Positions 2,550 to 60,798 of a stretch of DNA of 64,000 bases are shown here, in pieces. The translations under genes were made by a program, and so were the position numbers. Location of the stretch: the IMG/VR virus record IMGVR_UViG_3300020576_007607, positions 5,448-69,447 of that record, one strand, 5' to 3'. The notes below the pieces were generated by a model. The model worked only from the letters and a program-made list of their open reading frames with translations, did not search any database and had not been told where the DNA came from. The first letter of the stretch is position 1. Every line of letters starts with the position of its first letter. The stretch is from a virus (taxonomy: Duplodnaviria > Caudoviricetes).

Positions 2550-3116
2550 TCAATTCCAAAGTCGGAGAACGTTTTCCACCTGTTTGAAAACCTCATCGGC
2601 AGTGGTTTCCCCGTCTATGACCACCAATCTGTTCCCACTCTTGTAGAAATCGACCAACGGTTCGGTTTCCTCCCTGTATTGTTTAAGTCTTTTCTCGGCG
2701 ATTTTAGGATCCTTGTCATCTTCCCTTCCGGACGATTTCCCCCTTGACTTAATCCTTTCCTTGGCGGTCTCGTCGGAAACGTCAATATACAGGACCAAAC
2801 CCACGTCTGTCACCTTATCAAGAAACTCTCCCTGGGCGACGGTTCTCGGGGTTCCGTCAATTATGACGGGTGGATTTACCGATTTGATCTTCTCCCTGAT
2901 GATTTCGAATATGATCTCATCGGGAACAAGATTTCCCTTTCCGAGGATGTCGTTTATCTTTTTCCCGATTTCGGAACCCGATTTCTTTTCCTCACGCAGG
3001 ATGTCCCCTGTGGATATGAGAGAGTATCCGTATTTGGAGACCAGGCTTTTAGCCAAGGTTCCTTTTCCGCATCCCGGTTTTCCGAGAAGAATTACATTTC
3101 CATTATACATATTCAT
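2550..3116 (-). CDS. adk: adenylate kinase
   Basis: GKPGCGKGT P-loop, STGDILR, GNLVPD, IDGTPR, GREDD, short LID type. Confidence 0.92.
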   Translation of the reverse strand: MNMYNGNVILLGKPGCGKGTLAKSLVSKYGYSLISTGDILREEKKSGSEIGKKINDILGKGNLVPDEIIFEIIREKIKSVNPPVIIDGTPRTVAQGEFLDKVTDVGLVLYIDVSDETAKERIKSRGKSSGREDDKDPKIAEKRLKQYREETEPLVDFYKSGNRLVVIDGETTADEVFKQVENVLRLWN

Positions 3117-3424
3117 TCCAATATTTTATTTATCTTATCATCCCTGTGATGATTCAACTGAATTGTCATTATCATGTAGACATCCTCATTCATAGGAATT
3201 CCATCCTTAACAAGGACCTGATCAGAGTCTCTGAACATACCCCTTATTCCCGTATTTGTTATTACAGCATATCCGACGGAATGACCATCGGGAGTATTGA
3301 TATTGAAACAATACCCACCTCCGGTCTTGAAATACGAACCGTCAGGTATAAGCATTCTATCAACACGGATATAACCTTTTCCTTTCAATGGAAGGACATA
3401 TTCATTATCCAAGAAAATAGACAT
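3113..3424 (-). CDS. hypothetical protein with C-terminal tag RDDKINKIL
   Basis: Overlapping stop/start with neighbours in a minus-strand operon. Confidence 0.7.
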   Translation of the reverse strand: MSIFLDNEYVLPLKGKGYIRVDRMLIPDGSYFKTGGGYCFNINTPDGHSVGYAVITNTGIRGMFRDSDQVLVKDGIPMNEDVYMIMTIQLNHHRDDKINKILE

Positions 3425-3429
3425 AAAAT

Positions 3430-3942
3430 TTATTTGAAAAAGTCCATAAAATCATCCAAATAAGCTTCCGTCGAAACATCTTCCTTAGGTTCCGATTTCA
3501 AACCAAGTTTTTCGAATTTCCTCCTTTGGTTTTCAGAGGACTTTATATTCGACCGTATCGACCCTTCCACCCATTTGACAACCTCATCGGAAGCATCCCC
3601 GCAGAAATTCCCCTTCTCGTCTATCTTATCGATTCGACCCTTGGAGAATATAAAGTTTCTGATGTCGGGATCAGGGGTGTCGAGAAGCTTGTTCAACTTG
3701 AAGTCCCGTTTTGACTGTTCGTCGAAAATGTTTCCCTCACAGAACTGGGCTCCCGTCAGCATATGGGAGTTCATTTTGATACCAAGTCTTTCGACGGCCG
3801 ACTTGAACGACTTGTATCGTTTCGCCTCGAACCAATTTTTGGAGAAAGAGTCCTCACATTTGTTCTTATATCCCACGAAATATCCATCTCCCTGGGTTGA
3901 ACTATATCTCTGGTAGGGGTTTTGCCAAACTATATACCACAT
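3430..3942 (-). CDS. hypothetical protein with internal tag RDFKLNKLL
   Basis: Operon context, 170 aa. Confidence 0.7.
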   Translation of the reverse strand: MWYIVWQNPYQRYSSTQGDGYFVGYKNKCEDSFSKNWFEAKRYKSFKSAVERLGIKMNSHMLTGAQFCEGNIFDEQSKRDFKLNKLLDTPDPDIRNFIFSKGRIDKIDEKGNFCGDASDEVVKWVEGSIRSNIKSSENQRRKFEKLGLKSEPKEDVSTEAYLDDFMDFFK

Positions 3943-3953
3943 ATCAAATTTTT

Positions 3954-4124
3954 TTACATGTAACCGTTCACATGAAGCCTGATATAAGCCTCACAGTCGG
4001 ATAGGGATCCGGAAAAAACCTTTTCCCACCAAACATCATCAACCAAAATTCCCGACTCCTCCATCAGTTCATAGACGGCGTAATCCCCGTCCCGCCAATA
4101 TTGGACCTTATATTTCTTATCCAT
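3954..4124 (-). CDS. 56-aa hypothetical protein (MDKKYKVQYW...GSLSDCEAYIRL...)
   Basis: Fills the gap between co-oriented genes; translated by hand. Confidence 0.6.
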   Translation of the reverse strand: MDKKYKVQYWRDGDYAVYELMEESGILVDDVWWEKVFSGSLSDCEAYIRLHVNGYM

Positions 4125-4132
4125 ATTTATAT

Positions 4133-4828
4133 TTAAAAATTCAAATCGAAAAAATAGAATTCCTTATCACCCTTAACCCTGAAACTGATATAAAGACAGT
4201 TCCATTTCATCTTATGTTGAGGCAAATCCTTCCTGAACTTAGCCTTATTCATATCTTCTATTGAGAAATCAGAAAAGTCAATTGTGGTCCGATATCCATA
4301 TTCATTCCCTTCAACATCATATTTGTATGACAGACTGATATATGGATCGAGAGTAGCGTATTTTTTCTCAAATTCACCCAAAGAAGATTTGATGTTATCT
4401 GGTGACAGGGTTTTCACTAGTTCATGAAACTCAGAAACCGCTTCCTCTGGTTTTGGAAATTCAATCGATTTCAGATTCCAAATTTTGGCTTCCTCATCCA
4501 CTATTTTACCTTCATCCTCAAACAGCCTCTTTATTCTCTTGGAAGGTTTCTCCAAATCATATTCACCCAAGTCGCCCCTTTCCATCAGCCTTGATTGGAC
4601 ATATCCGACGTTTTTTGACGTGAACGCCTCCGTCAGAAAGAAGTCCACGGCTTGGTCTATATCAGAGAACTTGGTCATACCGACATGATAAAAATTATCA
4701 TACTTATAGCATTTCAGTTCATCATACCAAGACGAAATACTTCCCTTGTGTGGGAACTGAAAGCTTATTCCCGATTCAAGGATTTCCTTGAGAGATTCTT
4801 TTTTAATCATCGCAACCCGATTCATCAA
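4133..4828 (-). CDS. hypothetical protein
   Basis: 231-aa ORF, stop/start overlap with upstream gene. Confidence 0.7.
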   Translation of the reverse strand: MMNRVAMIKKESLKEILESGISFQFPHKGSISSWYDELKCYKYDNFYHVGMTKFSDIDQAVDFFLTEAFTSKNVGYVQSRLMERGDLGEYDLEKPSKRIKRLFEDEGKIVDEEAKIWNLKSIEFPKPEEAVSEFHELVKTLSPDNIKSSLGEFEKKYATLDPYISLSYKYDVEGNEYGYRTTIDFSDFSIEDMNKAKFRKDLPQHKMKWNCLYISFRVKGDKEFYFFDLNF

Positions 4829-5226: not shown

Positions 5227-5247
5227 AATTTTTTATTTTCCCTGTTA

Positions 5248-5512: not shown

Positions 5513-5530
5513 ATGGACAAAGATATGAAA

Positions 5531-5821
5531 TTATTTTCCTTTTTTCAAAGATTCTGGAAAAATATCCCCAAGTTTCGGATCCTTTTTCTCACCGAGTATC
5601 TCATCAATCTTCTCGTCCCGCAACCTTTCAGGATTTTCTAACCAATCATAATAAAATTCCGATGATCGGCATTTCTCATAAAGGTCATACTGACAGAAAT
5701 TATCCAAATCAGGATCGTCATGATATAAATATTTATAAAAATTGGACTTTAAGTTAAGGATATCCTCCCTAATTTCCTTTTCCACCTTCTTTGAGATCCT
5801 ATTCCGTTTCATCCTTTTCAT
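5531..5821 (-). CDS. hypothetical protein with tag RDEKIDEIL
   Basis: Operon context. Confidence 0.65.
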   Translation of the reverse strand: MKRMKRNRISKKVEKEIREDILNLKSNFYKYLYHDDPDLDNFCQYDLYEKCRSSEFYYDWLENPERLRDEKIDEILGEKKDPKLGDIFPESLKKGK

Positions 5822-6372
5822 AAAAGAATCTGTTTTATTCTGGAATCCCTGACCTCCTGTTTCAATTCACGGAGGAGAAATTCACGGTTGGACTGATTGT
5901 CACGTATGTGTATGACATCTTCCAATTCATATACACCATCAGTTCTTTCCCTCAGACACTCGAAAGTAGATATCTGGTTGTCATTAACACTATCCATAAC
6001 CCCCCGTTGATAAATATAACCATTAGTTATTTGGTTCCGACTGATTGACACTACAAAAAAATACCGGTTTTTTTCAGAAAGCATTCCTATAAACTCATTC
6101 AAGCCACAATCCGAATGAATCTGGTTAATATTGTCTATCACAACATCCCAAGAGTCGGTCATCGGCTTCAGCCACTGAAGTATTCCTTGATAGGTCGGGT
6201 TCTGCATGGTGACTTTCACAATCTTCCCTGATTTTACCGCCCTAGTGCCCCAACCGTTGTTCAAGTCGAAAAACAAACATTTCCTGTCCGATAGTTTGGT
6301 GAATTCCAAGGCAGCGGTTGTTTTTCCTGATCCTGCCTCCCCATAAATAAAATTAAACCTGTTTATATCCAT
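5818..6372 (-). CDS. P-loop NTPase with C-terminal tag RDSRIKQIL
   Basis: GEAGSGKTT Walker A; VVIDN Walker B. Confidence 0.75.
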   Translation of the reverse strand: MDINRFNFIYGEAGSGKTTAALEFTKLSDRKCLFFDLNNGWGTRAVKSGKIVKVTMQNPTYQGILQWLKPMTDSWDVVIDNINQIHSDCGLNEFIGMLSEKNRYFFVVSISRNQITNGYIYQRGVMDSVNDNQISTFECLRERTDGVYELEDVIHIRDNQSNREFLLRELKQEVRDSRIKQILL

Positions 6373-11690: not shown

Positions 11691-11996
11691 CTATTTTAGT
11701 ATTTTGCTTATCAGTTTTTCCCTCTGTATCACGGGTATGTCAAGATCGAGGTTCCTCATCAGCTGGTCCCCGAATTCGGGGTCCGGTATTTTTCCCCGAT
11801 AAAGGGCGACGAAAAACTCACGGCTGTTCTTCATGTATATTTCCTCAATCGTCCACGAACCCGAAGAATAGGTCATCACATAGGATCCGATCGTCGACCC
11901 AGGAACCGGTTTGGTTGTCCAAACCGAAGTATCATCGGGATAAAAAGGATCCGGAACAAATTGGTAGTCGGTTGGGTCGAATATGTAATCACTCAT
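11691..11996 (-). CDS. hypothetical protein with C-terminal tag REKLISKIL
   Basis: Operon context. Confidence 0.7.
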   Translation of the reverse strand: MSDYIFDPTDYQFVPDPFYPDDTSVWTTKPVPGSTIGSYVMTYSSGSWTIEEIYMKNSREFFVALYRGKIPDPEFGDQLMRNLDLDIPVIQREKLISKILK

Positions 11997-12264
11997 CCGT
12001 AATAGAATTTATGTTTTTTTCCCTCAAATGTTTTTTCCAATCATCCATTCCCCCAAAATAGGTTCCGGGTTTCGGATTCTCCCACCTTGATGTGGTTTGG
12101 TAGTATTCGTAATTGGCAAAAAAATCCACTTTTCCGAAGAAATCCGAGATTTCGACGGATGTTACCCTTACCCGAAAACATTTTTCCTGGTCCCGGATCC
12201 AGTCACCAAGGAACCCAATCACGTCATACCTATCCCAATTATCCGGCCATTCCATCGTCTTCAA
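11989..12264 (-). CDS. hypothetical protein with C-terminal tag REKNINSIT
   Basis: Operon context. Confidence 0.7.
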   Translation of the reverse strand: MKTMEWPDNWDRYDVIGFLGDWIRDQEKCFRVRVTSVEISDFFGKVDFFANYEYYQTTSRWENPKPGTYFGGMDDWKKHLREKNINSITDE

Positions 12265-12544
12265 TTAATTTGTCTATCTTGTTTTCCCTTATTTTGGAAA
12301 GAATCTCCGCCAAAAAGAAATCGAGAGTTTTGACGTTGGGGTCCCGTTTGATCATACCCTCGTTCATGACGGTCAACCCAAAAACAACCTCATCTATGTT
12401 TTTAGGATCATCACACATTTCTTCGTATCTCCCAATCAGATAATTTGTTTCTTCGATCAGGTCACCACTACAAGTAGTGTTCCATTCCCTCATGTAACCC
12501 AAATACGACCTGAGTATGTGTATTGTCATTCTCCTATCCTTCAT
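12239..12544 (-). CDS. hypothetical protein with C-terminal tag RENKIDKLI
   Basis: Operon context. Confidence 0.65.
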   Translation of the reverse strand: MKDRRMTIHILRSYLGYMREWNTTCSGDLIEETNYLIGRYEEMCDDPKNIDEVVFGLTVMNEGMIKRDPNVKTLDFFLAEILSKIRENKIDKLIEDDGMAG

Positions 12545-15278: not shown

Positions 15279-15309
15279 GAAAAGGGGAGACTAAATGTCT
15301 TCCCTTTTC
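15279..15309. terminator. bidirectional intrinsic terminator
   Basis: GAAAAGGGGAGAC-TAAAT-GTCTTCCCTTTTC between convergent genes. Confidence 0.75.
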
Positions 15310-15676
15310 AAATTTTGAACGAGTCGAAACTGTCATCGATTATGGATGATAGTTTTATATCCCTCAATATTGTTTCGTCAACCTTTTCCCCCTTTCCGAA
15401 ACAGACATACTCGAAATAATTGTCATATCTCCAAACATCCTCATGAACCGACTGTGATTCAATCCTCATATCAAACCAACCGGACTTGTTATTGAAGGTG
15501 ATTCGATTCCCCCTCGAAAGGTCGGAAACGAATGACTCGTAATGGGTCTTGGGTATAAGGAAACTCATCTTACCGACGCCCTTCGGATAAAGGGCGAAAT
15601 AGCGATGAGGCCTCCCATTCACATAAATATTGTTTTCACCGGCACCACCGTATGTGACATCCCTATACAAGTTCAT
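15308..15676 (-). CDS. hypothetical protein with tag RDIKLSSII
   Basis: TATTTTTG at 15682-15689. Confidence 0.7.
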   Translation of the reverse strand: MNLYRDVTYGGAGENNIYVNGRPHRYFALYPKGVGKMSFLIPKTHYESFVSDLSRGNRITFNNKSGWFDMRIESQSVHEDVWRYDNYFEYVCFGKGEKVDETILRDIKLSSIIDDSFDSFKI

Positions 15677-18158: not shown

Positions 18159-19391
18159 ATGGCAAAAGCAAGTAAGGAAATCAAGAAATTCGAATTCAGT
18201 AAAGTCGGAACTATAATAGATAATATAGCAAAGAATATTCCAATTTTAGTTGAAAAGGAAATAAAAGAAAAGACGTTCATAACTACTGGTGTTTATCTAG
18301 TAGATGCAGCAATGTCAGGAAGACTATTAAATGGTGGTATAGCAACTAATAGAATTTCAGTATTCGCTGGTGAGTCCGGAGCAGGTAAATCATTTATGTG
18401 TTATTCATGTGCTAAAAATGCTCAAAAAATGGGATACTCTGTTATCTATATTGACACAGAACAAGCTATTGATTTGGAAGATTTACCAAAATTCGGTGTA
18501 GATAACTCACTTGAAAAATTCAGACTAATCCGTTCAAATAAAGTAGAAGATGTTAATGTCCTACTTACTCAACTAATAGATGACTTAAAGACTCAAAAAC
18601 TTGAGGGTTATGAGTTACCAAAACTAATGATTGTGATTGACTCACTTGGTCAAATGGCATCAAACAAAGAAAAGTCAGACCTACTAAAAGGAGATATCAA
18701 ACAAGATATGACTAAAGCAAAAGCACTCGGATCCCTTTTTAGAAGCATAAATACCGACTTGGGATATTTAGACATTCCACTTTTAGTAGCGAACCATACC
18801 TATCTAACACTTGACATGTTTCCAAAAAGTGTCATGAAGGGCGGTAACGGTCTACTATACTCAGCTTCAGTAATTGGCATGATGAGCAAATCTCAGCTAA
18901 AAACCGGAGAAGAAGATGAGATGGATTTGGGATCATCTGGAATCACCGTATTGTTTAAAACCCAAAAGTCGAGATTAGCAAAACCAAAGAAAATCCGTTT
19001 TGATATATCATTCGCACACGGTATGAATCCATATACAGGTCTTGACGCTTTCTGCCGTCCCGAGTATTTCAACCAAATCGGAATAGCTCAGGGAAAAATG
19101 GAGGTGGACAAGTCGACGGGGGAAATGGTTTTCAAACCAGGCGGAAACAGATGGTATGTGTCACACCTCGACAAGTCGTTCACCACGAAACAGCTTTTCA
19201 CCAACCAAATATTCACGATGGATGTCCTGAAGAAAATGGAACCGATTGTGAACGACTATTTCCGATTCAAGTCTCTCGACGAGATCGAGGAAACCGAAAA
19301 ACAGTTCAACACCATGATAGGGGAAGAAGATGAGAATACGGACGAAAACGGATTTTCGGACAGCGTAGACGCGGATGATCTTTTCAACTAA
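18159..19391 (+). CDS. uvsX: RecA/UvsX-like recombinase
   Basis: ITTG...D, GESGAGKS, YIDTEQA, IVIDSLG, ANHTY, MKGGNGLLYSAS. Confidence 0.92.
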   Translation: MAKASKEIKKFEFSKVGTIIDNIAKNIPILVEKEIKEKTFITTGVYLVDAAMSGRLLNGGIATNRISVFAGESGAGKSFMCYSCAKNAQKMGYSVIYIDTEQAIDLEDLPKFGVDNSLEKFRLIRSNKVEDVNVLLTQLIDDLKTQKLEGYELPKLMIVIDSLGQMASNKEKSDLLKGDIKQDMTKAKALGSLFRSINTDLGYLDIPLLVANHTYLTLDMFPKSVMKGGNGLLYSASVIGMMSKSQLKTGEEDEMDLGSSGITVLFKTQKSRLAKPKKIRFDISFAHGMNPYTGLDAFCRPEYFNQIGIAQGKMEVDKSTGEMVFKPGGNRWYVSHLDKSFTTKQLFTNQIFTMDVLKKMEPIVNDYFRFKSLDEIEETEKQFNTMIGEEDENTDENGFSDSVDADDLFN

Positions 19392-20310: not shown

Positions 20311-20808
20311 TCATATCAATTTAAGAAGCTTTGTCAGTTTGATGTCCCTTTCCAACTGCTTGTTCATGACCATCCTGACGCATTCAGGACCGAATCCCGT
20401 ATCTATGGATGTGGGAACCGTCAGACGTTTCCCGCATTTCCCGCATCGTCCCGAGTGGTATATCTCGATGAATTCCGGAAGGGCGGTCTTAGCCGGTTCA
20501 GTATCGGTTGCGGGACTGACAATTGTCTGGATTCTTTTGAGGACCCAATCGAAAACCTTCACAGACTGGGCGTCCGCCCCAATCGGGGACTTAGGTGAGT
20601 GTCGGAACCTATTTTCCGATGTTATCAGACCGATATACGTGTAGATATCCGGCCCTGTAAGGACATTGACATAATAGATGTCCGACTTCTTGTGCTTGAC
20701 AACCTTATACGTGAAACGGTTTTGGGTGTTGGTGTTGACGAACGTCATGAACGCCTTGCCTGCCAATATGAAATTCAACGCCAAATCGTGTCTGAGTATC
20801 CCTGTCAT
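20311..20808 (-). CDS. DUF6011-like Zn-finger protein with C-terminal tag RDIKLTKLL
   Basis: CGKCGKRLTVPTSIDTGFGPEC; TATCTTTG at 20825-20832. Confidence 0.75.
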   Translation of the reverse strand: MTGILRHDLALNFILAGKAFMTFVNTNTQNRFTYKVVKHKKSDIYYVNVLTGPDIYTYIGLITSENRFRHSPKSPIGADAQSVKVFDWVLKRIQTIVSPATDTEPAKTALPEFIEIYHSGRCGKCGKRLTVPTSIDTGFGPECVRMVMNKQLERDIKLTKLLKLI

Positions 20809-21052
20809 TTATCGTTTGTTTATACAAAGATACGGAAAAAACACCGAATAAAAAACCTGTTCCCTTACATGAGGAACATTTTGGAATCCTCCCGTTTATA
20901 GTTGTGTCGCAATATCCGCTTCCGTTGCATGTCAGACATTTGACCATTTTCTTCCCATGGGTTTCAAGCCATTTTTCGGTTCTCAATTTTTTCCTTTCCT
21001 TCCAATCCATGTCTAAGGTATCATAATATTCAGAATACAGTTTCTCTTCCAA
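20705..21052 (-). CDS. small CxxCxGxG Zn-finger protein (3' end uncertain)
   Basis: CLTCNGSG, CSSCKGTG; the tail overlaps the next gene by about 100 nt. Confidence 0.5.
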   Translation of the reverse strand: MEEKLYSEYYDTLDMDWKERKKLRTEKWLETHGKKMVKCLTCNGSGYCDTTINGRIPKCSSCKGTGFLFGVFSVSLYKQTINDRDTQTRFGVEFHIGRQGVHDVRQHQHPKPFHV

Positions 21053-21243
21053 GCAACAGCTGTCCAGAAATTTTTCCCGATTAGGTTATTGAAGAAAGCT
21101 TCCGTATCCATGAAATACATCCTACCATCCTCCGTCAGGATGAAATCCTCTGCATATTTAGAAACCCGAATAATCTGGTTGTCCTTTAGGGTGGCGACGT
21201 GATCATGACCGAGAGTCCGGAAAATGTAGTCTTTGGCTGTCAT
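21013..21243 (-). CDS. hypothetical protein
   Basis: ATG 4 nt after TATCTTTG (21248-21255). Confidence 0.6.
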   Translation of the reverse strand: MTAKDYIFRTLGHDHVATLKDNQIIRVSKYAEDFILTEDGRMYFMDTEAFFNNLIGKNFWTAVAWKRNCILNIMIP

Positions 21244-21317
21244 ACGACAAAGATACCGAAAACCTCCGAAAAACAAAAAATTTTCGAGGGGAGACAACTT
21301 TCTAGATATATAATTCC

Positions 21318-22256
21318 ATGGAACTGAACTCTAAGATATTCGTCGCTGGACACAACGGAATGGTCGGATCGGCAATAATCAGGAAACTGAAATCGCTGGG
21401 ATATGAAAACATCATCGTCGCCGACAGGAACAAATACGACCTGAGAAGCCAGTTCGGGGTCAACGACTTCTTCTACTACAACAGGCCAGAATACGTTTTC
21501 CTCGCGGCCGCCAAGGTCGGGGGAATAAAGGCTAATAACGACTTCAAGGCGGATTTCATAACCGACAACATCCTGATACAGACCAACGTCATTTCGGCAT
21601 GCCACAGATACGGAGTCAGGAAACTGGTGTTTCTCGGATCTTCCTGCATCTACCCAAAAATGGCGGAACAGCCGATAAGGGAGGAATCACTGATGTCAGG
21701 ATATCTTGAACCCACCAACGACGCCTACGCGATTGCCAAGATTTCGGGAATCAAGATGTGCCAATCATACAACCAACAGTACGGCACCGATTTCGTCTCG
21801 GTTATGCCGTGCAACCTTTACGGAATCGGAGACAACTACCATCCAGAAAACTCACATGTCCTGCCATCGATAATCAGGAAACTCCACCAGGCCAAAAAGG
21901 ACGTGAGCGGAAGAATCGAACTCTGGGGAGACGGAACCCCATACAGGGAGTTCCTTTTCGCCGACGATCTGGCCGACGCCTGCCATTTCGTCATGACCAA
22001 CCGGACACCTGACCTGATAAACATAGGGTCGGGAAAGGACCAGACAATACGTGAACTTGCCGAGACGGCAAGGGACATCATAAACCCAGGATGTGGGGTA
22101 TCCTTCGATGGAAGGTCCGACATCAACGGAACCCCGAAGAAGCTTCTCGACGTCACCAAGATGGAACGGCTCGGGTGGAAGGCCAAAACCGGACTTTCGG
22201 AGGGAATAGGAATCGCCTATCAAGACTTTTTGAGAAGACATGAGAGCGCTGCTTAA
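21318..22256 (+). CDS. fcl: GDP-L-fucose synthase
   Basis: VAGHNGMVGSA, LAAAKVGGI, LGSSCIYPK, YAIAK, MPCNLYG, WGDGTPYREF. Confidence 0.95.
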   Translation: MELNSKIFVAGHNGMVGSAIIRKLKSLGYENIIVADRNKYDLRSQFGVNDFFYYNRPEYVFLAAAKVGGIKANNDFKADFITDNILIQTNVISACHRYGVRKLVFLGSSCIYPKMAEQPIREESLMSGYLEPTNDAYAIAKISGIKMCQSYNQQYGTDFVSVMPCNLYGIGDNYHPENSHVLPSIIRKLHQAKKDVSGRIELWGDGTPYREFLFADDLADACHFVMTNRTPDLINIGSGKDQTIRELAETARDIINPGCGVSFDGRSDINGTPKKLLDVTKMERLGWKAKTGLSEGIGIAYQDFLRRHESAA

Positions 22257-22584
22257 AATCGAGGCCGACATCCCCGACGGCATTTCACCGGGGGACGAAA
22301 CCAAGTTCGTATACCATTACGACAAGGCACACCTTATCTTCCCACTCGAGGACTGGGAAATGGCCTTCGAGACCGACAAGAAGAAGCTCGCCGAACACAA
22401 CACCAGAATGAAATACTATCGGGAGAACTACATTTCGGACAAGAAACTGTCCAGAAAATTCGATGGACGAGAAATGACCGGGATATTCCATTCCAGATCT
22501 AGAATCGACAGGATACCGATTTTCGACGTCGACATCAGCATATCCCAACTCAGGGACGACAAAATAAACGAGATACTCAAATGA
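22240..22584 (+). CDS. hypothetical protein with C-terminal tag RDDKINEIL
   Basis: Overlaps the end of fcl. Confidence 0.7.
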   Translation: MRALLKIEADIPDGISPGDETKFVYHYDKAHLIFPLEDWEMAFETDKKKLAEHNTRMKYYRENYISDKKLSRKFDGREMTGIFHSRSRIDRIPIFDVDISISQLRDDKINEILK

Positions 22585-24558: not shown

Positions 24559-25320
24559 TCAATACCATTCCTTCTCCAAGAACCAATAAAGCTCCTCCAC
24601 ATCGTCACAGATGAAATATTCCGAGCCCCCGTAACGGTCAGATCGGTTTATAGCGAACCAATAGTCGTCGAGCCTTATTATCTCGGTGCTAGAACTTTTG
24701 GAGAAAATCTCGACGAAATCGGAATTCATCGAATAATGGAAATTGAAATCCCTTGATTTTCTCGCATTGAGAATTTCCAAAATTCTCTTCCTTTCGGTAT
24801 TGGTGAAATCAACCATCCTGTGATCCCGCCTTTTTTCCATGAACTCCTCAGAACTGACCTTTTTGGGTTTCCTCGAATTTGACTCGTTGAATCTCCTTAT
24901 TTCCATACGGCTTTTGTTACCAACTTTTTTCATCCCATACATTGAGTACAGTCGTTTCAGTTTTTCCCGATATTCTTCCATGTTCTGATCCGTCAGATCC
25001 TTGAAACGGTTCGGACTCGGATAAGCGTAGAGGTTCAGTCCGGGGAAATGCCTTTCCACCGCATCGACTATTATCCTGTCTATGTTCCTGTTCCTATATC
25101 CCTCATTTATGTAAAACCTTCTCGCCTCAGCCCAATATCCATCATCCTTCTTCTTCAGATTCATGAGATAGAGCCTACCTACTACCTTATCAGAGGAAAT
25201 ATCCCTAACAGCAATCTTGTAGGAGCTCTCGGTCTTAGTGACCTCTAGCATGAAATCTCCGATTTTCTCGCTCACAGGGGAGAAATCCAAAAAGCCCTCG
25301 TTGAACCTTAATATTCTCAT
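24559..25320 (-). CDS. N-tagged protein: GNAT-like domain fused to a DD.WF...CD domain
   Basis: Start MRILRFNE after TAATATATA (25326-25334); FYINEGYRNRNI resembles GNAT motif A; second tag MEIRRFNE internally. Confidence 0.65.
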   Translation of the reverse strand: MRILRFNEGFLDFSPVSEKIGDFMLEVTKTESSYKIAVRDISSDKVVGRLYLMNLKKKDDGYWAEARRFYINEGYRNRNIDRIIVDAVERHFPGLNLYAYPSPNRFKDLTDQNMEEYREKLKRLYSMYGMKKVGNKSRMEIRRFNESNSRKPKKVSSEEFMEKRRDHRMVDFTNTERKRILEILNARKSRDFNFHYSMNSDFVEIFSKSSSTEIIRLDDYWFAINRSDRYGGSEYFICDDVEELYWFLEKEWY

Positions 25321-25366
25321 ATGTGTATATATTAAAAACAACATCCGAAATTTTAATATAAAACAT

Positions 25367-25912
25367 ATGAAAAAGAAAAACCTGAAGAAGATAATCAAAT
25401 CCTCATTCGAGGAACTGATGGCTCTCAAAGATAACCAAAACCAAGCAAATTTTATTTCGACAGATTCCTTTGGTTCGACCACTTATGAGGAAAAAAGAAA
25501 TCCTTATGACGAGAAACAGTCCCAAAGATTTCTCAAGATGGTGATCGGCCTCATGGAACAGAATGAGACCAGCGTTTCCATGATGTCATCGGGAACCGTA
25601 AACATACACCAAAACCTCCAAAACGGAGAGGAACTCCAGATCGTGGTCACCCAAAAAGGATACACAATCAACAAGTGGAAACCGAACACCATCACACTGG
25701 GAACCTTTCCCAGCAAGCCGGTCCCGAACCACCGCTACTCGGACGAAACCATTCTAGAAAAGATAATGCCTATTGTGCGGAAAAAGATGGAGGATTACCA
25801 ACAGAACGCATTCAACGACCTGATCGACGACATATATGTCCTGACAAAACTGTCGAGGGACAACAATTTGGAAGAGATTCTGAAAGATGAAAATAACGAC
25901 AATAAATGCTGA
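25367..25912 (+). CDS. hypothetical protein with tag RDNNLEEIL
   Basis: ATG 25367; overlaps the sbcC start. Confidence 0.7.
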   Translation: MKKKNLKKIIKSSFEELMALKDNQNQANFISTDSFGSTTYEEKRNPYDEKQSQRFLKMVIGLMEQNETSVSMMSSGTVNIHQNLQNGEELQIVVTQKGYTINKWKPNTITLGTFPSKPVPNHRYSDETILEKIMPIVRKKMEDYQQNAFNDLIDDIYVLTKLSRDNNLEEILKDENNDNKC

Positions 25913-28898: not shown

Positions 28899-29156
28899 AT
28901 GGAAAAGGAACTCATCGAAAAACTGGAAAAGATGCCGATACAGGTTCTTCGGGAACTTTCTGACATAAGGATCAAGAAACGCGAATCCGTCCAGAGGATG
29001 AGATTCGAGGATGCCCTTGATTTCAGAACGAAGGAAAGGGAGATTCTCGTAAAATACGGTATCCCAGGCAACGCCAAATTCGATACCGACATATTCACCT
29101 TTATGAGGGACAGAAAACTTGGAATTTTGACAGATGAAAACATTCAAGACCGATGA
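28899..29156 (+). CDS. UVR-like small protein with tag RDRKLGILT
   Basis: KKRESVQRMRFEDA..R helix; operon context. Confidence 0.65.
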   Translation: MEKELIEKLEKMPIQVLRELSDIRIKKRESVQRMRFEDALDFRTKEREILVKYGIPGNAKFDTDIFTFMRDRKLGILTDENIQDR

Positions 29157-29337
29157 ATGGGTCTGTCACAGCCATATTCACGGAAGGAAATTCAAAATCG
29201 TCAGGGAAATAACACCTTCCCAATATGAGATTTCGGATCCAACCGACGGAAAAACATACATAGAACCGACAGACTGCCTGTTGGGACTTGAAGAATCAAG
29301 AGATAACCTTTTAAAATTCTTATTGGATGAAAATTGA
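29134..29337 (+). CDS. hypothetical protein with tag RDNLLKFLL
   Basis: Operon context. Confidence 0.65.
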   Translation: MKTFKTDEWVCHSHIHGRKFKIVREITPSQYEISDPTDGKTYIEPTDCLLGLEESRDNLLKFLLDEN

Positions 29338-29593
29338 AAACATCAAAAAACCGTTTGTCCTTATCGGACTCGGACTGGTAAACATACTTCATGGAGGACT
29401 GCATCTGATTCAGTTCTTGCAGTCGATCCTGCTTGTCAACGAATCGGTGACACACCACGATTCCGGATTGGACAGGATACTCCACAATCCGATTTTCGCC
29501 CTTGTTTGGGGTTTGGTCGGACTCATGACCCTTTACATAGGAATAAAGGATTACATACACCACAGAAAATGCAAGCACAAACATGGCTATTAA
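29327..29593 (+). CDS. His-rich two-TM membrane protein
   Basis: Two hydrophobic helices; HGGLH, HHD, HHRK. Confidence 0.65.
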   Translation: MKIENIKKPFVLIGLGLVNILHGGLHLIQFLQSILLVNESVTHHDSGLDRILHNPIFALVWGLVGLMTLYIGIKDYIHHRKCKHKHGY

Positions 29594-29816
29594 ATTGGAC
29601 GATTTAAGCAAATACAAGAGCCCTGGAGTCTACACCGTCGAATACGACGTAAGCGATTTCCGCCCACACATTACGGAAAACATCGTCAACCACATCAACT
29701 CCCTGTACAGGATGTTGGGATCAGACATGACATTCTCCAAATGGAATTCCATGACGGATTCCGAACAGAAAAAATTCGAACGGGACCTTAAAATCAGAAA
29801 ACTATTGGACATATGA
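29583..29816 (+). CDS. hypothetical protein with tag RDLKIRKLL
   Basis: Operon context. Confidence 0.65.
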   Translation: MAIKLDDLSKYKSPGVYTVEYDVSDFRPHITENIVNHINSLYRMLGSDMTFSKWNSMTDSEQKKFERDLKIRKLLDI

Positions 29817-30112
29817 AGCAAAATCCAGCAAAAACCGGAGATCCCGCATTAATCAGGGAAACCCAAAAAGAGGAAAGGGTTGTCCGATCCTATGGAAAGA
29901 CGAAGATTTCAATCGACTTTAAACTTGACGGATTCGAATCCGAACTCGTTGAGACGACAGTCATGAAATTCAAAAAGGAATGTCCCGACGACAGGATTGA
30001 CGGATGGTATTACACCCTTTCCGACGGAAAGGAATACCATGAGAACGATCTCATAATCGGAAGGGAGGAAATAAGGGACCATAAAATACAAAAGCTGGAT
30101 GGGATTCAATAA
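29813..30112 (+). CDS. hypothetical protein with tag RDHKIQKL
   Basis: Operon context. Confidence 0.65.
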   Translation: MKQNPAKTGDPALIRETQKEERVVRSYGKTKISIDFKLDGFESELVETTVMKFKKECPDDRIDGWYYTLSDGKEYHENDLIIGREEIRDHKIQKLDGIQ

Positions 30113-38798: not shown

Positions 38799-39041
38799 AT
38801 GAATCCAGAACTGCCCCAAGTCATTCAATACCTATTTGAAACCGAGGACAGGAAATACCCCCACCACAAGGTTATCAACATAGAGGTGATAAGCTCAAAC
38901 AACGGATACCGATACCGCTCCGAGATAATGTCCTCGATCTCGTCCAAGTACAAACTGTGGAAACCATGGCAGGAAATAGACGAGGAAACAATAACCCTCG
39001 AACTCAGAGAAAGAAACATCGACCAGATTTTGGGGATTTAG
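38799..39041 (+). CDS. hypothetical protein with tag RERNIDQIL
   Basis: 80-aa ORF divergent from the structural gene. Confidence 0.65.
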   Translation: MNPELPQVIQYLFETEDRKYPHHKVINIEVISSNNGYRYRSEIMSSISSKYKLWKPWQEIDEETITLELRERNIDQILGI

Positions 39042-40224: not shown

Positions 40225-40446
40225 ATGGTAGTTTGTCTTCATGATTTTAAAATAGAAAGCTTAGGATTTCATCACCTTTTCATAAAAGGACACAAATATG
40301 CCTTCAGATTGGAATATTTTGATTTCATCTGTGACGAGATGATAACCATTTACGTCAACAACATACCGATCACAACATCCACATTCAAGGAAAATTTCAT
40401 CCGTCTCGAGGACTGGAGACACCAACAGATAAACAAGGTAATATGA
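40225..40446 (+). CDS. hypothetical protein with tag RHQQINKVI
   Basis: Operon context. Confidence 0.6.
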   Translation: MVVCLHDFKIESLGFHHLFIKGHKYAFRLEYFDFICDEMITIYVNNIPITTSTFKENFIRLEDWRHQQINKVI

Positions 40447-43468: not shown

Positions 43469-44578
43469 TTATTTTTCTCCGAATTCGGTTTTATCATAAG
43501 ACAAATAAAATTTGTCGAAGTCGAAATATTTATCATAGATATCCATAACGCCATCATACGTGACCTCCTTCAGAATGGTGTGAATGTTCCATTCGGGCGG
43601 GCTTATCCATCTCATCACGTTGGCGTATCTGTTTATCTTTTCCTTTTCCACCTTTATAAGAAGGGAATTCTTTATTGTATTGAATCTTTCCTTGGTCATG
43701 AATTTTTTCGGATTTCCCAAAACGAACCTAACCGCGTCGTAAACCTTCTCGACATTGTCCGAACTTGTCTTGGTCGATATCGAAACAACCCCTTGGTTGT
43801 TGTATCTGGTCTGCCCGCATCTTATCGAATAAACCAATCCTTTATTTTCCCTCACCTCAGTGTAAAGAGGAGAAGAAAGTCCTACCGAAAGCATAGATGA
43901 CAGGAAAGTTATGTAGTTGAAATCAGATTCGTATATGGGAGAAACCATTATGATTGAAGCCTTGTCTCCGAAATCGGATCTTTTTTCCAATGGAACGTCG
44001 TCAAACGGACCGAACTCATACTTCTTGTCGGATTTGAGATCCGAAAAGTCTATGTCCATCTTGAGTGGGGTTTTCGAAACGTTTATTATTTTGGTGGGGT
44101 TCCTGAACTGTTTCTCATAGAATTTCATGACATCCATGAACTTCAGGCCCTCCAAGTCCTTCCTGAGACCGATCGGATCGTAGTCCCGAAAAAGCTTTCT
44201 GGCCAGGTTGAGCTGATGGGAAGACTGTTGGTCGGCGAAATAACTGTTGTACTCCTGAAGAACGATATTCTTCTCATTCTCGAACTGTTCCTTGGTGATC
44301 TTGAAATCTGTTATTAGATCGACTAGTCCCTCCCTGTATTTATTCAGGTTCTTCTCAAGACCCGTGAAGTAGAAAACTATGTTTCCAGAAGAAGTATAAG
44401 CGTTCCAATCGATTCCATTACTTTCCAACTCATCCCTCAAATGTTCGAAATTCTTGCACTGAAGGTGTTCCATAAGATGACTGGTGCCATATGTACCAGG
44501 AGTTTCGATGTATGTCGATCCGTCGAAGACGATGTAGAAACCCGACATGTCCGTCATTGATTTAAGATTTACAATCAT
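43469..44578 (-). CDS. M16 (insulinase-type) zinc peptidase
   Basis: GTSHLMEH (HxxEH), NAYTS, EKNIVLQE, LYTEVRENKGLVY; TAATATATA at 44584-44592. Confidence 0.88.
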   Translation of the reverse strand: MIVNLKSMTDMSGFYIVFDGSTYIETPGTYGTSHLMEHLQCKNFEHLRDELESNGIDWNAYTSSGNIVFYFTGLEKNLNKYREGLVDLITDFKITKEQFENEKNIVLQEYNSYFADQQSSHQLNLARKLFRDYDPIGLRKDLEGLKFMDVMKFYEKQFRNPTKIINVSKTPLKMDIDFSDLKSDKKYEFGPFDDVPLEKRSDFGDKASIIMVSPIYESDFNYITFLSSMLSVGLSSPLYTEVRENKGLVYSIRCGQTRYNNQGVVSISTKTSSDNVEKVYDAVRFVLGNPKKFMTKERFNTIKNSLLIKVEKEKINRYANVMRWISPPEWNIHTILKEVTYDGVMDIYDKYFDFDKFYLSYDKTEFGEK

Positions 44579-49456: not shown

Positions 49457-49912
49457 ATGTCGGATATAAAAAAATTTTATTATTACGGAACTAGTTTGAT
49501 CATCTTAAAGACAGGAACCAATAAATTAAATTTGGTCAAAGCCATTAAACTTTTTTCAGGAATGGGACTGAAAGAATCTAAGGAAGTGGTGGATAAGGTA
49601 TCCATGGGTATCGAACAGGTTATTAAGGTGGAAACGTCTACTAGCTTATCTCTCATATCAGCGGTCAGAGAAATTCTATCCGAATGTGACGGGTGCGTAT
49701 GGAGACTCAGCGACCAGGAACAGATAAGAAACAAGAAACTGATAGACTTGGGCATGGGAACCAAGGAAGACCTGGTCGAATACCTGGTGGAAAAGGATCT
49801 TTTCGAAATACTCGAAAACGACAAAAGCTATGATGCGATATACCAAATCCTGAAATCGAGATACGACCAATTTTCTGAAAACACATTGAACCAAATCCTC
49901 AACATATGCTAG
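49457..49912 (+). CDS. protein with a ribosomal L7/L12 C-terminal-like motif and internal tag
   Basis: KLNLVKAIKLFSGMGLKESKEVVD; RNKKLIDLG; TATTTTTG at 49445-49452. Confidence 0.65.
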   Translation: MSDIKKFYYYGTSLIILKTGTNKLNLVKAIKLFSGMGLKESKEVVDKVSMGIEQVIKVETSTSLSLISAVREILSECDGCVWRLSDQEQIRNKKLIDLGMGTKEDLVEYLVEKDLFEILENDKSYDAIYQILKSRYDQFSENTLNQILNIC

Positions 49913-50730
49913 TAACCTGCAAAAAACCGAACAAATATACCGTAAAGGGGGTCACCTACAAAGTCCTGTTTCTCAACAACAAGAAAGACCCATCATCACG
50001 TTGGTTCTATCCTAGGATTATGATGGAAATAAAACCAGGGATCACCTCTACCTATTCCCCGAAAAACTTCACGATGACCGACGGGACACCGATACCCGAG
50101 ATCAACTACCAATCCACCGAATACAATCCCGAGTCTTGGAAAGACGGACTTATAAGCGAGGAGAACATGGTCAAGAAAGGGGACTATGTAGTATACCGAT
50201 ACGGCAGTTCCAAATTCATGGAAAAAGGAAAGACATACAAGGTTGAGGATGTCAGGGTCACACGACACAAATCCACATCTTCCACATGGGTCAACATCAC
50301 AATCAAGATTGAGAAAAACCCGAGGTGGATTTCAAGCACCTCATTCCGGAAACTATCCGACCAGGAATCAAGGGACATCAGCCTATCCGAACTTCTGGAC
50401 CAACCGGTTCCGGTTTCCGAAATCGACAAGTCGACAAGAAAATTCGACCAGATGAACAAGGATGACCAACATAGGACACTCCTGTCGACCTTGGCATCCG
50501 CGATGGTGGACGTGACGAGAAACAATATGAGCATCATAGATTGGGCTTGTGAGAAGATCGGAAAAAAATACGATTTGAAACCTGATGATTTCAAACCGAT
50601 ATTGAAGAAATCACTCAATACCCTCATTAAGGAGAGGGAACAAAAAAAGGAGGTCTTTCGACCTCCTTTTTTTGTTAGGAAACACTCAGATATATTTTCC
50701 TTGACATTCGATCGACCGCGATCACCTTGA
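49906..50730 (+). CDS. hypothetical protein with internal tag RDISLSELL
   Basis: 274 aa; the 3' end runs through a terminator hairpin. Confidence 0.65.
   Translation: MLVTCKKPNKYTVKGVTYKVLFLNNKKDPSSRWFYPRIMMEIKPGITSTYSPKNFTMTDGTPIPEINYQSTEYNPESWKDGLISEENMVKKGDYVVYRYGSSKFMEKGKTYKVEDVRVTRHKSTSSTWVNITIKIEKNPRWISSTSFRKLSDQESRDISLSELLDQPVPVSEIDKSTRKFDQMNKDDQHRTLLSTLASAMVDVTRNNMSIIDWACEKIGKKYDLKPDDFKPILKKSLNTLIKEREQKKEVFRPPFFVRKHSDIFSLTFDRPRSP
50642..50673. terminator. bidirectional intrinsic terminator
   Basis: AAAAAAAGGAGGTC-TTTC-GACCTCCTTTTTTT. Confidence 0.8.
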
Positions 50731-59900: not shown

Positions 59901-60248
59901 GGTGGGAGCTGTAAGGCTCGAAATGTCATTGGGTTCCCTGTTGAGGCTGACGGTGACCACTTTCTTGAACTGTGTCCCGTTGGAAGGCTGAATAAGTGCC
60001 GAACCGTAGTTGAGACTGTATATCGATTTAATACTGTTTTCAAGAGTCTTTATCTGAGACTGCAAATAGTTGAAAGAAGGTATGTTCAGCAGAGACGAGG
60101 TAAGTCCCGCAGAGTCGGTAACCTTGACGGCAATCGAACTGTCTGTGGTTTTCATGGCCTGGTCGATGCCGCTTAATATGTTTATGACGTTGGTATTGTA
60201 GTTTACTATCTGATCCGCAACTTGACTGAATGAACTTTGAACTGCCAT
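56949..60248 (-). CDS. 1099-aa probable virion structural protein
   Basis: Size, coiled-coil segments; TAATATATA at 60270-60278. Confidence 0.6.
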   Translation of the reverse strand: MAVQSSFSQVADQIVNYNTNVINILSGIDQAMKTTDSSIAVKVTDSAGLTSSLLNIPSFNYLQSQIKTLENSIKSIYSLNYGSALIQPSNGTQFKKVVTVSLNREPNDISSLTAPTTFVTDKNWIFDGLMNPTLSIELDLTGQIEYNVRKILCRRYIPEFATDTNGNATPLGVQAINSFNALFKSKNSFTLEDYENWHRNTPGLVEPLRPNYDEQMFDLQPNRLEYDGTFTVTQFQDDTLNRKSWYVLDKLSYVRNILQSDGVTYVQQERQLAVGDELIVNVIGASTTRYSIIEISTSQSLPRVRLETIEGFEAPPIGIVGGLKIYSPVIYNKKVRVSIGYNERNVVFVKSLDMDNYILSKNWSKGIGYFTNELINKDNSLSLSDYYSSQVYDYGMVLKDLVAKKTPNVLAGTPNTVVLNSANFKVVRINQHLNPSSNSMDIKAMYNQVQTLKSEITQINDSIQDKNKLIRSTRFTSEAARKQSLNDLDSLNRQRVSKSNLLASVNKQIINTSNLNVAPRNTGVSPEFRLRGFWSIPEAVQTRGTKPQEIIQFRVQYRYLSKDGNESPVETFKLADAPANAASTLKNGAFSNWIEFKSDVRQRLFNAATGTYTWKIEDVSDADTPNINQLDIPIRPNEKVEVRIKSISEVGYPDSPVESDWSETLSVEFPDSLNNVLNETDFILQEASKEDLRVSIQSDLSAKGLDDHLSEQVIVNNINYLHNTDRILSGFKDENGLVLSLLDYLTRLENRVRSLEEKISRVKGELQVVVYRNNVPTVLKNGSETTYIVECEDYIKEKFVSPGVPSGRVYPNNVYVVKEFSVVISNKSQESDLGLLSNRTYDPVSNAQSYNSATPQVFWVNQSDELIVSNTTGVTKTQIDYQYLWSINYDNVNQTTIDKLSENIGNNFVADNNNSLTTVLSSNSYNLGYNENAILSFVGNDLSLTDKRKWIDVSQSAISTNKLLTSVHPMVQELTKIQETNSDKVRTVKGGQENDIVIPIRIYFKLNALDPNRTGADYQYVNLNDPKPPTTHIKKIKFLLENEADNRSFVFSLIFRINRQKKVVSTRDRLGLNDLSVNVNVSAANQAIASAPNNLSANL

Positions 60249-60318
60249 TTGGATGGTTTTATTTTTGATTATATATTAATAATTTCAGGTTCTCAAATCG
60301 ATTTCATACATTTGTTGG

Positions 60319-60798
60319 ATGAATTACATCAAAAAAATAAAATCGATGGGCTTCCGAAAAATCAAACACCCTCTGGTAATCTATGAGGTCAACGATTACG
60401 GCAACAACATCCTTTATTCCGAGATAAAAGAAGCCAACACACTTATAATGGAAAGGACAGTCAAGAACAAAAGAAACCCGACTCAACCGATCCGAATCTA
60501 TGAGATGGGAATCACACTCACCAAAGAAACCATAGACACCCTTTCAACATACGCCTGGAAAGTAAACAGAAACCTGACCATATACCTGACCATACACAAC
60601 CAAGGGTTCACATGTTTCGGGGAAGACACCGAAGCCCCACCTATCATAACCGATGGATTCATATCCCCACACATAGAGAAAAAAGACAAGTTTTTCATAA
60701 TGCAACATGGAAAACTCAGTGAAACCTTTTGGAAGGATATTGTAAACGAGATGCCCTTGAAATACAAAAGGGAAATACTCCTAAATCAGATAATTTAA
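60319..60798 (+). CDS. hypothetical protein with tag REILLNQII
   Basis: TACATTTG at 60307-60314. Confidence 0.7.
   Translation: MNYIKKIKSMGFRKIKHPLVIYEVNDYGNNILYSEIKEANTLIMERTVKNKRNPTQPIRIYEMGITLTKETIDTLSTYAWKVNRNLTIYLTIHNQGFTCFGEDTEAPPIITDGFISPHIEKKDKFFIMQHGKLSETFWKDIVNEMPLKYKREILLNQII

Follow-up and report, generated by a model that had tools for sequence, protein, structure and literature searches.

About one in five genes on the 64,000-nucleotide stretch of phage DNA analysed here (the window) encodes a small, otherwise unrelated protein that bears the same short peptide, with the core motif R-x-x-K-[IL]-x-x-[IL]-[IL]. This motif is a portable peptide tag that is selected at the protein level and probably acts as an address or docking label for one common reader. 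What is new here is that the tag exists in genome-specific versions, each of which is common to dozens of unrelated proteins. In some of the largest known phages roughly one tenth of the genes are labelled in this way, or about one sixth if a second, N-terminal tag is counted. Knowing the reader would give hundreds of proteins that currently cannot be annotated a common fate (packing, turnover or docking) and would reveal how such phages put newly acquired genes to immediate use.

A C-terminal peptide is enriched among the proteins of the contig

The window belongs to a 69-kb contig from a megaphage of the Mahaphage type, which has LR756502 and LR745206 as relatives. The version of the tag found in this phage reads [h]-R-[DE]-x-K-[IL]-[ND]-x-[IL]-L and is usually followed by zero to three polar residues and the stop codon; the consensus over the tag instances is R-[DE]-x-K-[IL]-[ND]-x-[IL]-L-[KDNG]. 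The original prediction had listed 18 such peptides, and all 18 were found in real ORFs, either at the C-terminus or close to it, with four of them (RNCILNIMI, REKNINSIT, RHQQINKVI and REILLNQII) being weak variants. It had also named internal or N-terminal copies in five genes; those in genes 3430 and 49906 are good matches, while genes 19822, 40443 and 49457 have poor matches that may be due to chance. The tags are listed below by their own coordinates, with those of the gene or ORF in brackets where given.

3119–3145, minus strand: RDDKINKIL, 1 residue before the stop of a 103-aa protein (3113–3424)
3682–3708, minus strand: internal tag RDFKLNKLL at residue 79 of 170, ahead of a D/P-rich linker (3430–3942)
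5594–5620, minus strand: RDEKIDEIL, 20 residues before the stop of a 96-aa protein (5531–5821)
5824–5850, minus strand: RDSRIKQIL, ending a Sak4-like AAA_24 ATPase of 184 aa (5818–6372)
11697–11723, minus strand: REKLISKIL (11691–11996)
11998–12024, minus strand: weak tag REKNINSIT (11989–12264)
12263–12289, minus strand: RENKIDKLI (12239–12544)
15338–15364, minus strand: RDIKLSSII, downstream neighbour on the opposite strand (15308–15676)
20323–20349, minus strand: RDIKLTKLL after a DUF6011 zinc ribbon in a 165-aa protein (20311–20808)
21019–21045, minus strand: doubtful tag RNCILNIMI in a weakly coding ORF (21013–21297)
22552–22578, plus strand: RDDKINEIL (22240–22584)
25856–25882, plus strand: RDNNLEEIL, 9 residues before the stop of the ORF (25238–25912)
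29106–29132, plus strand: RDRKLGILT (28899–29156)
29299–29325, plus strand: RDNLLKFLL (29134–29337)
29781–29807, plus strand: RDLKIRKLL (29583–29816)
30074–30100, plus strand: RDHKIQKL(D) (29813–30112)
39006–39032, plus strand: RERNIDQIL (38799–39041)
40417–40443, plus strand: weak tag RHQQINKVI at the extreme end of the gene (40225–40446)
50371–50397, plus strand: internal tag RDISLSELL at residue 156 of 274, ahead of a P-rich linker (49906–50730)
60769–60795, plus strand: weak tag REILLNQII at the extreme end of a gene with no co-directional gene after it (60319–60798)

Two further tagged genes lie on the contig outside the window, close to its edge. The tag of gene 29583–29816 is kept in the orthologues of LR756502 and of the IMG/VR contig G002, and the LR756502 orthologue of gene 29813–30112 has RDYKVNKLID as its end.

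Enrichment was assessed on the 97 called proteins of the 69-kb contig using 200 within-protein shuffles. The strict motif R[DE].[KN][IL]..[IL][IL] was observed 10 times versus 0.085 expected from shuffled sequence (maximum 1), which bears out the original observation; nine of these ten copies lay within 30 residues of the C-terminus, where 0.01 were expected. With the looser pattern R[DE]..[IL]..[ILV][ILV], 17 copies were observed in the same proteins versus 0.875 expected after shuffling. Several "internal tags" in large conserved proteins were rejected as chance matches; their orthologues lack them. Full-text literature searches found no description of the C-terminal motif, and an ESM Atlas search with a tagged tail gave no lead.

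Selection acts on the protein sequence of the tag

Conservation at the protein level, as opposed to a DNA repeat, had been proposed from the codons, and this view held. The tag codons differ (the tag arginine is encoded by AGA, AGG, CGG and CGT), and selection therefore acts at the protein level. Codon usage within the tags equals that of the genome, and pairwise identity at the conserved tag residues is 0.81 at codon positions 1 and 2 versus 0.37 at position 3. The codon data already contradict the reading of the tag as a by-product, whether as the trace of a DNA or RNA signal where genes end (one that loads ribosomes onto the following gene or serves as a recombination handle) or as the remnant of a single expanded paralogue family, and we consider this reading barely credible: translational coupling to the next gene is more frequent in tagged genes (63% versus 39%) and the tag codons are A-rich in AT-rich genomes, but synonymous codons vary freely, isoleucine and leucine replace each other despite their different first codon base, 26% of the tagged genes are not closely followed by a gene in the same direction, the distance from tag to stop ranges from 0 to 9 residues, internal copies exist, and the bodies of the tagged proteins are unrelated. 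A DNA repeat or ribosome-loading by-product was rejected on the free synonymous variation and the unlinked gene ends, and a paralogue family on the tag-masked comparison and the clustering described next.

The tag is portable among unrelated carriers

With the tag masked, no pair of carriers fell below E = 0.09 in BLASTP, in agreement with the claim that the carriers are unrelated, and the 85 tagged proteins of LR756502 fell into 81 clusters. Almost without exception the carriers are small, soluble, fast-evolving proteins without a known family, and in pI, hydropathy and length they are no different from other small proteins. A Pfam match was obtained for only 4 of 92 carriers, and searches of ten carriers against Pfam and PHROGs matched only AAA_24/Sak4-like and DUF6011. 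A riboflavin kinase and a Sak4-like ATPase are among the carriers; 96% have no recognisable replication function.

The tag is portable: one and the same protein family can have members with and without it. Some members of the DUF6011/phrog_20259 family end directly after the zinc ribbon, while others add the tag; the PHROG profile of the DUF6011-type carrier stops short of the tag, and homologues of this carrier in cultured alphaproteobacterial phages end before the tag position. A search of its fold against the PDB returned nothing at E ≤ 0.001. In the AlphaFold2 model of the carrier, residues 141–164 form a helix with a pLDDT of 62–74, versus >90 for the body. According to this model, the tag makes up the final two to three turns of a C-terminal helix that is exposed, and R1, K4, I5, I8 and L9 are predicted to lie on one face of it. 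In 101 of 124 instances 0–9 residues separate the tag from the C-terminus, and in 73 (59%) only 0–2 do so. One orthologue group keeps the tag with 41–53 residues after it, which argues against threading from the free end.

Related megaphages carry genome-specific versions of the tag

The tag labels about 9–20% of the genes in this clade of Bacteroidota-type megaphages. In LR756502, 85 of 946 proteins end in the tag versus 0.8 expected, and 51 do so in LR756504 versus 0.66 expected. A degenerate DNA pattern was found 67 times in LR756502 and 78 times in LR745206, compared with 7 and 6 matches, respectively, for the reversed control. The strict DNA pattern RDDKINxIL gave 14 matches in IMG/VR versus a rough chance expectation of about 13; three of them were C-terminal tags, and through these the contigs G001, G002 and G003 were reached, in which 9, 19 and 4 proteins are tagged versus 0.04–0.13 expected.

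The sequence of the tag differs between genomes, reading R-K-x-K-I-[EDK]-x-L-L in LR756504 and K-R-T-K-L-[IM]-D-x-M-L in LR756501. Position 2 is Asp or Glu in 65 of the 85 tags of LR756502 (76%) and never Lys or Arg, whereas in LR756504 it is Asp or Glu in 3 of 51 tags and Lys or Arg in 24 (p = 3.6e-19; p = 3.5e-17 with one tag per cluster). Position 5 is Ile or Leu in LR756502 and Ile alone in LR756504, and position 8 is mainly Ile in the former and mainly Leu in the latter. None of 196 orthologue pairs between these two genomes is tagged, and the versions are therefore not inherited with the protein bodies. That the shift strikes dozens of unrelated proteins together implies one shared, co-evolving reader; the genome-specific versions could also be driven by different hosts.

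A second, N-terminal tag and promoter motifs in the same genomes

An N-terminal tag, MKH[LI]K.F.E, which ends in Glu and which we take to resemble the T4 capsid-targeting sequence, is present in the same genomes. As the original prediction had stated, the N-tagged proteins lack the C-terminal tag: no protein of the contig carries both, and among 1511 proteins of five genomes only 2 do, versus 10 expected (p = 0.003). Phage PAU has the N-terminal tag and lacks a clear C-terminal one.

Many carriers had further been placed in operons behind TAnnTTTG promoters, and the tag had been proposed to address early proteins. TAnnTTTG motifs do occur 5–32 nt upstream of genes 15308, 20311 and 60319 and of the 12239/11989/11691 operon, but the motif is as frequent as in shuffled sequence (64 versus 63.1); support for the promoter claim is weak. 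The designation as early proteins has as its basis only a few host-type promoter motifs and the small-gene neighbourhoods.

Candidate readers and processing enzymes

We propose that the tag helix would plug into a groove on one common reader; a reader that co-evolved with the tag would most likely be phage-encoded. The earlier idea of an amphipathic helix that directs proteins to one hub fits the helical AlphaFold2 model, the portability and the joint change from genome to genome. As to the hubs that had been suggested, a strongly conserved host machine is less likely because the tag versions are genome-specific, while a degron or processing role is circumstantially supported, given that the phages have Clp and M16 protease genes of their own; a phage compartment would be a further putative hub. 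The genome-specific versions offer a handle, as the reader would be expected to show a matching charge swap facing tag position 2.

If the motif is an address tag, a possible function is hand-over to phage proteolysis or processing, with timed removal or trimming of accessory proteins. The machinery would be ClpP together with a ClpC-like unfoldase that has a VGF loop, and/or the following peptidase of the window.

43469–44578, minus strand: candidate reader or processing enzyme, an M16B-type zinc peptidase of 369 aa with an HLMEH motif

Under the same premise, procapsid loading, as with the T4 capsid-targeting sequence, and docking on a phage or host replication or transcription machine are each a slightly less likely candidate, with other roles making up the rest.

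LR756502, LR745206, LR756504, LR756501 and G002 encode a Clp unfoldase with two rings and 705 aa, which carries a VGF loop and lacks a Clp_N domain, and ClpP was found in four of these five genomes, LR756501 being the exception. The tag shares with the C-terminal degrons and adaptor-tethering tails of AAA+ proteases (ssrA LAA, MuA-type RRKKAI, the SspB tail) that it is a short signal, in most cases close to the protein end, that a second, mutually exclusive N-terminal signal exists in the same phages, and that a ClpC-like unfoldase with a ClpP-docking loop is phage-encoded together with ClpP. In sequence it is unlike every known degron class: degrons of the ssrA or ClpX C-motif type have non-polar LAA-type or basic RRKKAI-type tails, whereas the tag is a charged amphipathic helix and is kept in orthologues in which 41–53 residues follow. 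The phage Lak-C1 has Clp genes and no clear C-terminal tag.

The M16 peptidase is present in LR756502, LR745206, LR756504, LR756501, G002 and this contig, and it is kept in every examined tag-bearing genome that is complete or covers the region. It is absent from the relatives PTm1, PAU and Lak-C1, all of which lack a clear C-terminal tag. However, 28 families (27 besides M16) show the same clade-specific pattern, and the link of Clp and M16 to the tag is therefore confounded by shared descent. The closest solved relatives of the M16B peptidase are the "processing protease" 3hdi and MPP-beta. Presequences cleaved by such enzymes resemble the tag, as modelled, in being amphipathic, Arg-containing helical address peptides on many unrelated proteins; they differ in being N-terminal, longer and without a fixed motif. 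A complex prediction of two M16 peptidase copies with residues 126–165 of the DUF6011 carrier reached a score of 0.27 (mark 0.32), which does not bear on binding in either direction.

An extended version, which we regard as improbable, is a sorting system of the phage's own, in which two orthogonal terminal tags would be recognised by a co-evolving phage receptor and the M16B peptidase would remove the tag after delivery. An M28/M42 aminopeptidase would then act alongside the dedicated M16B processing peptidase. Such a system would be like presequence import into organelles, and infected cells would then have to contain a compartment or sorted destinations.

Alternative readings: possible capsid loading, host docking or self-association

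Taken as a reading in its own right, loading of the procapsid or virion is rather unlikely. The helix would dock on the scaffold or the inner capsid shell, and a large, changeable collection of accessory proteins would be packed and ejected with the DNA. C-terminal peptides of scaffold proteins and of encapsulin cargo bind the inside of HK97-fold shells; these are portable as well, the tag differs from them in sequence, and its docking on a capsid is putative. T4 internal proteins are basic, whereas the carriers are mildly acidic, as are other small proteins. A close parallel is the T4 capsid-targeting sequence of IPI-III and Alt, where very diverse bodies share only a conserved, portable terminal peptide (PMC3012670), just as the tag is the sole element shared by unrelated, hypervariable proteins. 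The T4-like N-terminal tag of the same genomes and weak matches to a T4 gp21-type protease in LR756502, LR756504 and LR756501 also favour loading. Yet the T4 peptide starts at Met1 and is cleaved after Glu by the prohead protease on a handful of proteins, while the tag is C-terminal, has a different sequence and occurs on about 85 proteins per genome. No conserved cleavage site precedes it, as a search for the prohead-protease site (L/I)-x-E revealed no conserved Glu or h-x-E at positions -14 to -1 (≤0.66 bit). The carriers also have replication and recombination genes as neighbours, some of them follow promoter motifs of the host type, and they include the Sak4-like ATPase and the riboflavin kinase.

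Small, fast-evolving carriers in early-type neighbourhoods would also fit take-over proteins that dock on a conserved host machine (RNA polymerase, ribosome, sliding clamp, SSB or membrane), and two annotated carriers are DNA-metabolism proteins; still, we consider this reading unlikely. A strongly conserved host surface would hardly accommodate a change from acid to base at position 2 together with the further differences between related phages. For the sliding clamp, the C-terminal location and the h-x-x-h-h spacing of the tag recall PIP-box-type and phage clamp motifs. The PIP-box, however, reads Q-x-x-[ILM]-x-x-[FY]-[FY], whereas the tag has Asp or Glu at the position aligned with Gln and lacks the aromatic pair; positions 8 and 9 are I, L, V or M in 124 of 124 instances, which the search pattern itself demanded. 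For the membrane, a MinD-type helix has a broad hydrophobic face, basic flanks and no conserved acidic residue, whereas the tag offers three hydrophobic positions and has Asp or Glu at position 2 in 76% of the LR756502 copies. Since a long uncharged run is present in only 5% of the carriers and the tag conserves an acidic residue, a membrane anchor was rejected.

Self-association, in which tag helices would bind one another or the N-terminal tag to give oligomers or mixed assemblies, is very improbable. It would agree with the modelled exposed helix and with two tags that share genomes but hardly ever a protein, but the tag has only three hydrophobic positions and no heptad register running upstream, the indiscriminate pairing of about 150 different proteins would have no obvious use, and PAU has the N-terminal tag alone.

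An address label with its own reader, the reading that we prefer, would also be of practical interest, as a short, portable and orthogonal tag–reader pair could be put to use for targeting proteins in Bacteroidota.

Other features of the window and occurrence of the phages

A tRNA scan of the window found no tRNA, and a megablast search with the gene for a 2103-aa protein against phage records gave no match. In a search of sequencing runs, no RNA run was listed with these phages; the DNA matches, most of them with small shares, came from freshwater and aquaculture metagenomes.

A real, proteome-scale C-terminal peptide tag

All 18 peptides of the original prediction were found in the window (18/18), which covers bases 5448-69447 of a virus contig that is 69,447 bases long; two additional carriers lie on the contig beyond it. 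The strict pattern R[DE].[KN][IL]..[IL][IL] occurred 10 times in the contig's 97 called proteins compared with 0.085 in shuffled proteins, and 9 of the 10 copies lay within 30 residues of the C-terminus (0.01 expected from the same control). The tag is thus a real peptide tag at the scale of the proteome. Across five genomes, 124 instances gave the consensus [KLVI]-[SQ]-x-[IL]-R-[DE]-x-K-[IL]-[NDS]-x-[IL]-L-[KDNG], with the stop codon 0-2 residues past the tag in 73 of them. Full-text literature searching found no published description of it.

It had been proposed that the carriers are unrelated and that the tag is conserved at the protein level, and both claims held. Masking the tag left no similarity between any two carriers (best E = 0.09). 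The arginine is encoded by AGA, AGG, CGG or CGT, codon usage in the tags equals that of the genome, and codon identity among tags is 37% at third positions compared with 81% at positions 1 and 2. The tag does not fit the definition of a PIP-box. It is not a membrane anchor, since only 5% of carriers have a long uncharged run and the tag keeps an acidic residue, and it is not a paralogue family, since the carrier bodies are unrelated in masked comparison and clustering. The codon data, the I/L interchange, the 26% of tagged genes without a close co-directional neighbour and the variable distance from tag to stop show that it is neither a DNA repeat nor a side effect of loading ribosomes onto the following gene.

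Gene calls conflict at 24559-25912 of the window, at one tag-bearing frame:
24559-25482, - strand: open reading frame of 307 aa
25238-25912, + strand: tag-bearing open reading frame, overlapping the former and abutting an SbcC-like gene at 25906

The tag as an extension of the protein body

The 165-aa window protein at 20311-20808 belongs to the large DUF6011/phrog_20259 family, whose PHROG profile stops short of the tag. Among 120 metagenomic homologues, some end directly past the zinc ribbon and most bear ...R-D-x-x-L-x-x-I-L; homologues from cultured alphaproteobacterial phages terminate before the tag position. In an AlphaFold2 model (61 sequences), the body has a pLDDT above 90 and the tag ends a long C-terminal helix (residues 141-164) with a pLDDT of 62-74, as would be expected for an exposed extension. 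The tag is an add-on to the protein body.

The tag is a clade-wide system

Over 98% of their length, the large window proteins are 43-44% identical to proteins of two uncultured megaphages, LR756502 (642 kb) and LR745206 (635 kb); weaker matches were to LR756501/LR756503, LR756504, Lak phages, Sphingomonas phage PAU and Tenacibaculum phage PTm1. The host is probably a member of the Bacteroidota, because an encoded T9SS CHU_C domain protein and TAnnTTTG motifs directly upstream of some genes fit such a host.

Matches to a degenerate DNA pattern of the tag numbered 67 in LR756502, 78 in LR745206, and 9, 16 and 10 in three IMG/VR contigs; the reversed control gave 7, 6 and 0-2, respectively. Analysis of the whole LR756502 genome placed R..[KR]h..hh at the end of 85 of its 946 called proteins compared with 0.8 expected, and these fall into 81 sequence-unrelated clusters. 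The tag is a clade-wide system. Only 4 of 92 tagged LR756502 proteins had a Pfam match (riboflavin kinase, DUF6011, DUF2158, zinc ribbon). Carriers are soluble, mildly acidic and slightly below average length, and they concentrate where small genes cluster, at either end of the record. The genes of these end regions (0-40 kb and 600-642 kb) are very small, with a median length of 115-124 aa, tightly packed and inward-reading, and 31 of the 85 tags lie there.

The tag is kept wherever carrier orthologues exist. Orthologue pairs involving it numbered 3 of 41 between this contig and LR756502 and 0 of 196 between LR756502 and LR756504; carriers turn over fast.

Genome-specific versions point to one shared reader

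The main new result is that the tag exists in genome-specific versions. LR756504 seemed tag-less by the strict pattern, but de novo counting revealed 51 C-terminal tags (0.66 expected) of the version R-K-x-K-I-[EDK]-[NED]-L-L; LR756501 has 15 tags of the version K-R-T-K-L-[IM]-D-x-M-L. Position 2 is D/E in 65/85 and K/R in 0/85 tags of LR756502 versus 3/51 and 24/51 in LR756504 (p = 3.6e-19; p = 3.5e-17 with one tag per body cluster), and positions 5, 6 and 8 also differ between genomes. The LR756504 gene at 415901 (65 aa) ends in the tandem tags RKSKIDRIF and RQHKIEELL.

Because the bodies that bear tags in one genome are unrelated to each other, and none of them occurs among the LR756502-LR756504 orthologues, the shift was not inherited with the proteins, and dozens of tags must therefore have moved together. 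This points to one shared reader, a partner recognising the tag, that would have changed alongside it; the versions imply a single co-evolving reader. Host differences may instead drive the versions; a phage-encoded reader is the simplest fit to them.

Candidate readers

A two-ring Clp unfoldase of ~705 aa is encoded in LR756502, LR745206, LR756504, LR756501 and the IMG/VR contig G002, with AAA, AAA_lid_9, UVR motif, AAA_2 and D2-small but no Clp_N domain. Its VGF loop sits where ClpA and ClpC have the ClpP-docking loop.

L161:253-2370 (G002): ClpC/ClpE-like unfoldase, acidic N-terminal stretch
L157:238-2361 (LR756502): ClpC/ClpE-like unfoldase, acidic N-terminal stretch

Bona fide ClpP, in up to three copies per genome, is encoded by LR756502, LR745206, LR756504 and G002; unlike these, LR756501 yielded no ClpP. 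Neither gene was found in PTm1 or PAU, and Lak-C1 has both, yet no clear C-terminal tag. Signals for AAA+ proteases are typically terminal, at either protein end. A docking helix would fit the tag better than a threaded tail, because one orthologue group keeps it both terminally (LR756504, 65 aa) and, as a single tag, with 41-53 residues after it (G002, LR756502). The tag may serve proteolysis or processing, procapsid loading, or docking on a hub.

Of the LR756502 families, a phyletic filter retained 28 that LR756504, LR756501 and G002 share and that Lak-C1, PTm1 and PAU lack. The named ones are an M16B zinc peptidase, an M28/M42 aminopeptidase, NusG, bS21, GluRS, an RNA ligase, a NUDIX protein and two homing-endonuclease-type proteins.

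Window 43469-44578, - strand: M16B zinc peptidase, 369 aa, HLMEH motif, orthologue of the LR756502 family
LR756502 323871-324068: ribosomal protein bS21, clade-specific conserved gene
LR756502 502846-503394: NusG, likewise
LR756502 408566-410038: Glu/Gln-tRNA synthetase, likewise
LR756502 491690-492961: T4 Rnl1-type RNA ligase, likewise

Profile searches found no M16 family member in PTm1, PAU or Lak-C1. Hundreds of megaphage contigs, up to 658 kb long, encode the M16B peptidase at 54-78% identity (>500 metagenomic proteins), which makes it a core gene under strong conservation in this megaphage clade; its closest solved relatives are the bacterial 'processing protease' 3hdi and MPP-beta. It is an attractive candidate reader, because the address peptides that M16B enzymes recognise are amphipathic and contain Arg, with its co-occurrence with the tag confounded by shared descent.

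The N-terminal tag

A separate start-of-protein motif was present in every genome with the C-terminal tag. No N-tagged protein had been seen to carry the C-terminal tag, and the two co-occur on very few proteins, well below expectation (2 of 1511 proteins versus 10; p = 0.003). The N-terminal tag is the wider-spread: PAU has MKT[LI]S.LYE on 13 proteins and lacks a clear C-terminal tag, making this cultured phage a possible system for testing the N-terminal one.

Window gene starts 16304, 16732, 31862, 44626, 45097, 45461: N-terminal tag genes

Its versions are MKH[LI]K.F.E (window phage, LR756502), MI[KR].FK[LI]FE (LR756501, 16 proteins) and MKT[LI]S[KQ]LYE (PAU, 13/288). It ends in h-x-E, which we take to resemble the T4 prohead-protease site.

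Further observations in the window

18159-19391, + strand: RecA/KaiC-type ATPase, 410 aa, acidic tail with terminal aromatic residue (...DADDLFN; relatives ...DADDIFG), presumably similar to the partner-binding tails of SSB, T7 gp4 and T7 gp2.5
49457-49912, + strand: N-terminal part (...AIKLFSGMGLKESKEVVDK...) like the ribosomal protein L7/L12 C-terminal domain, judged by eye
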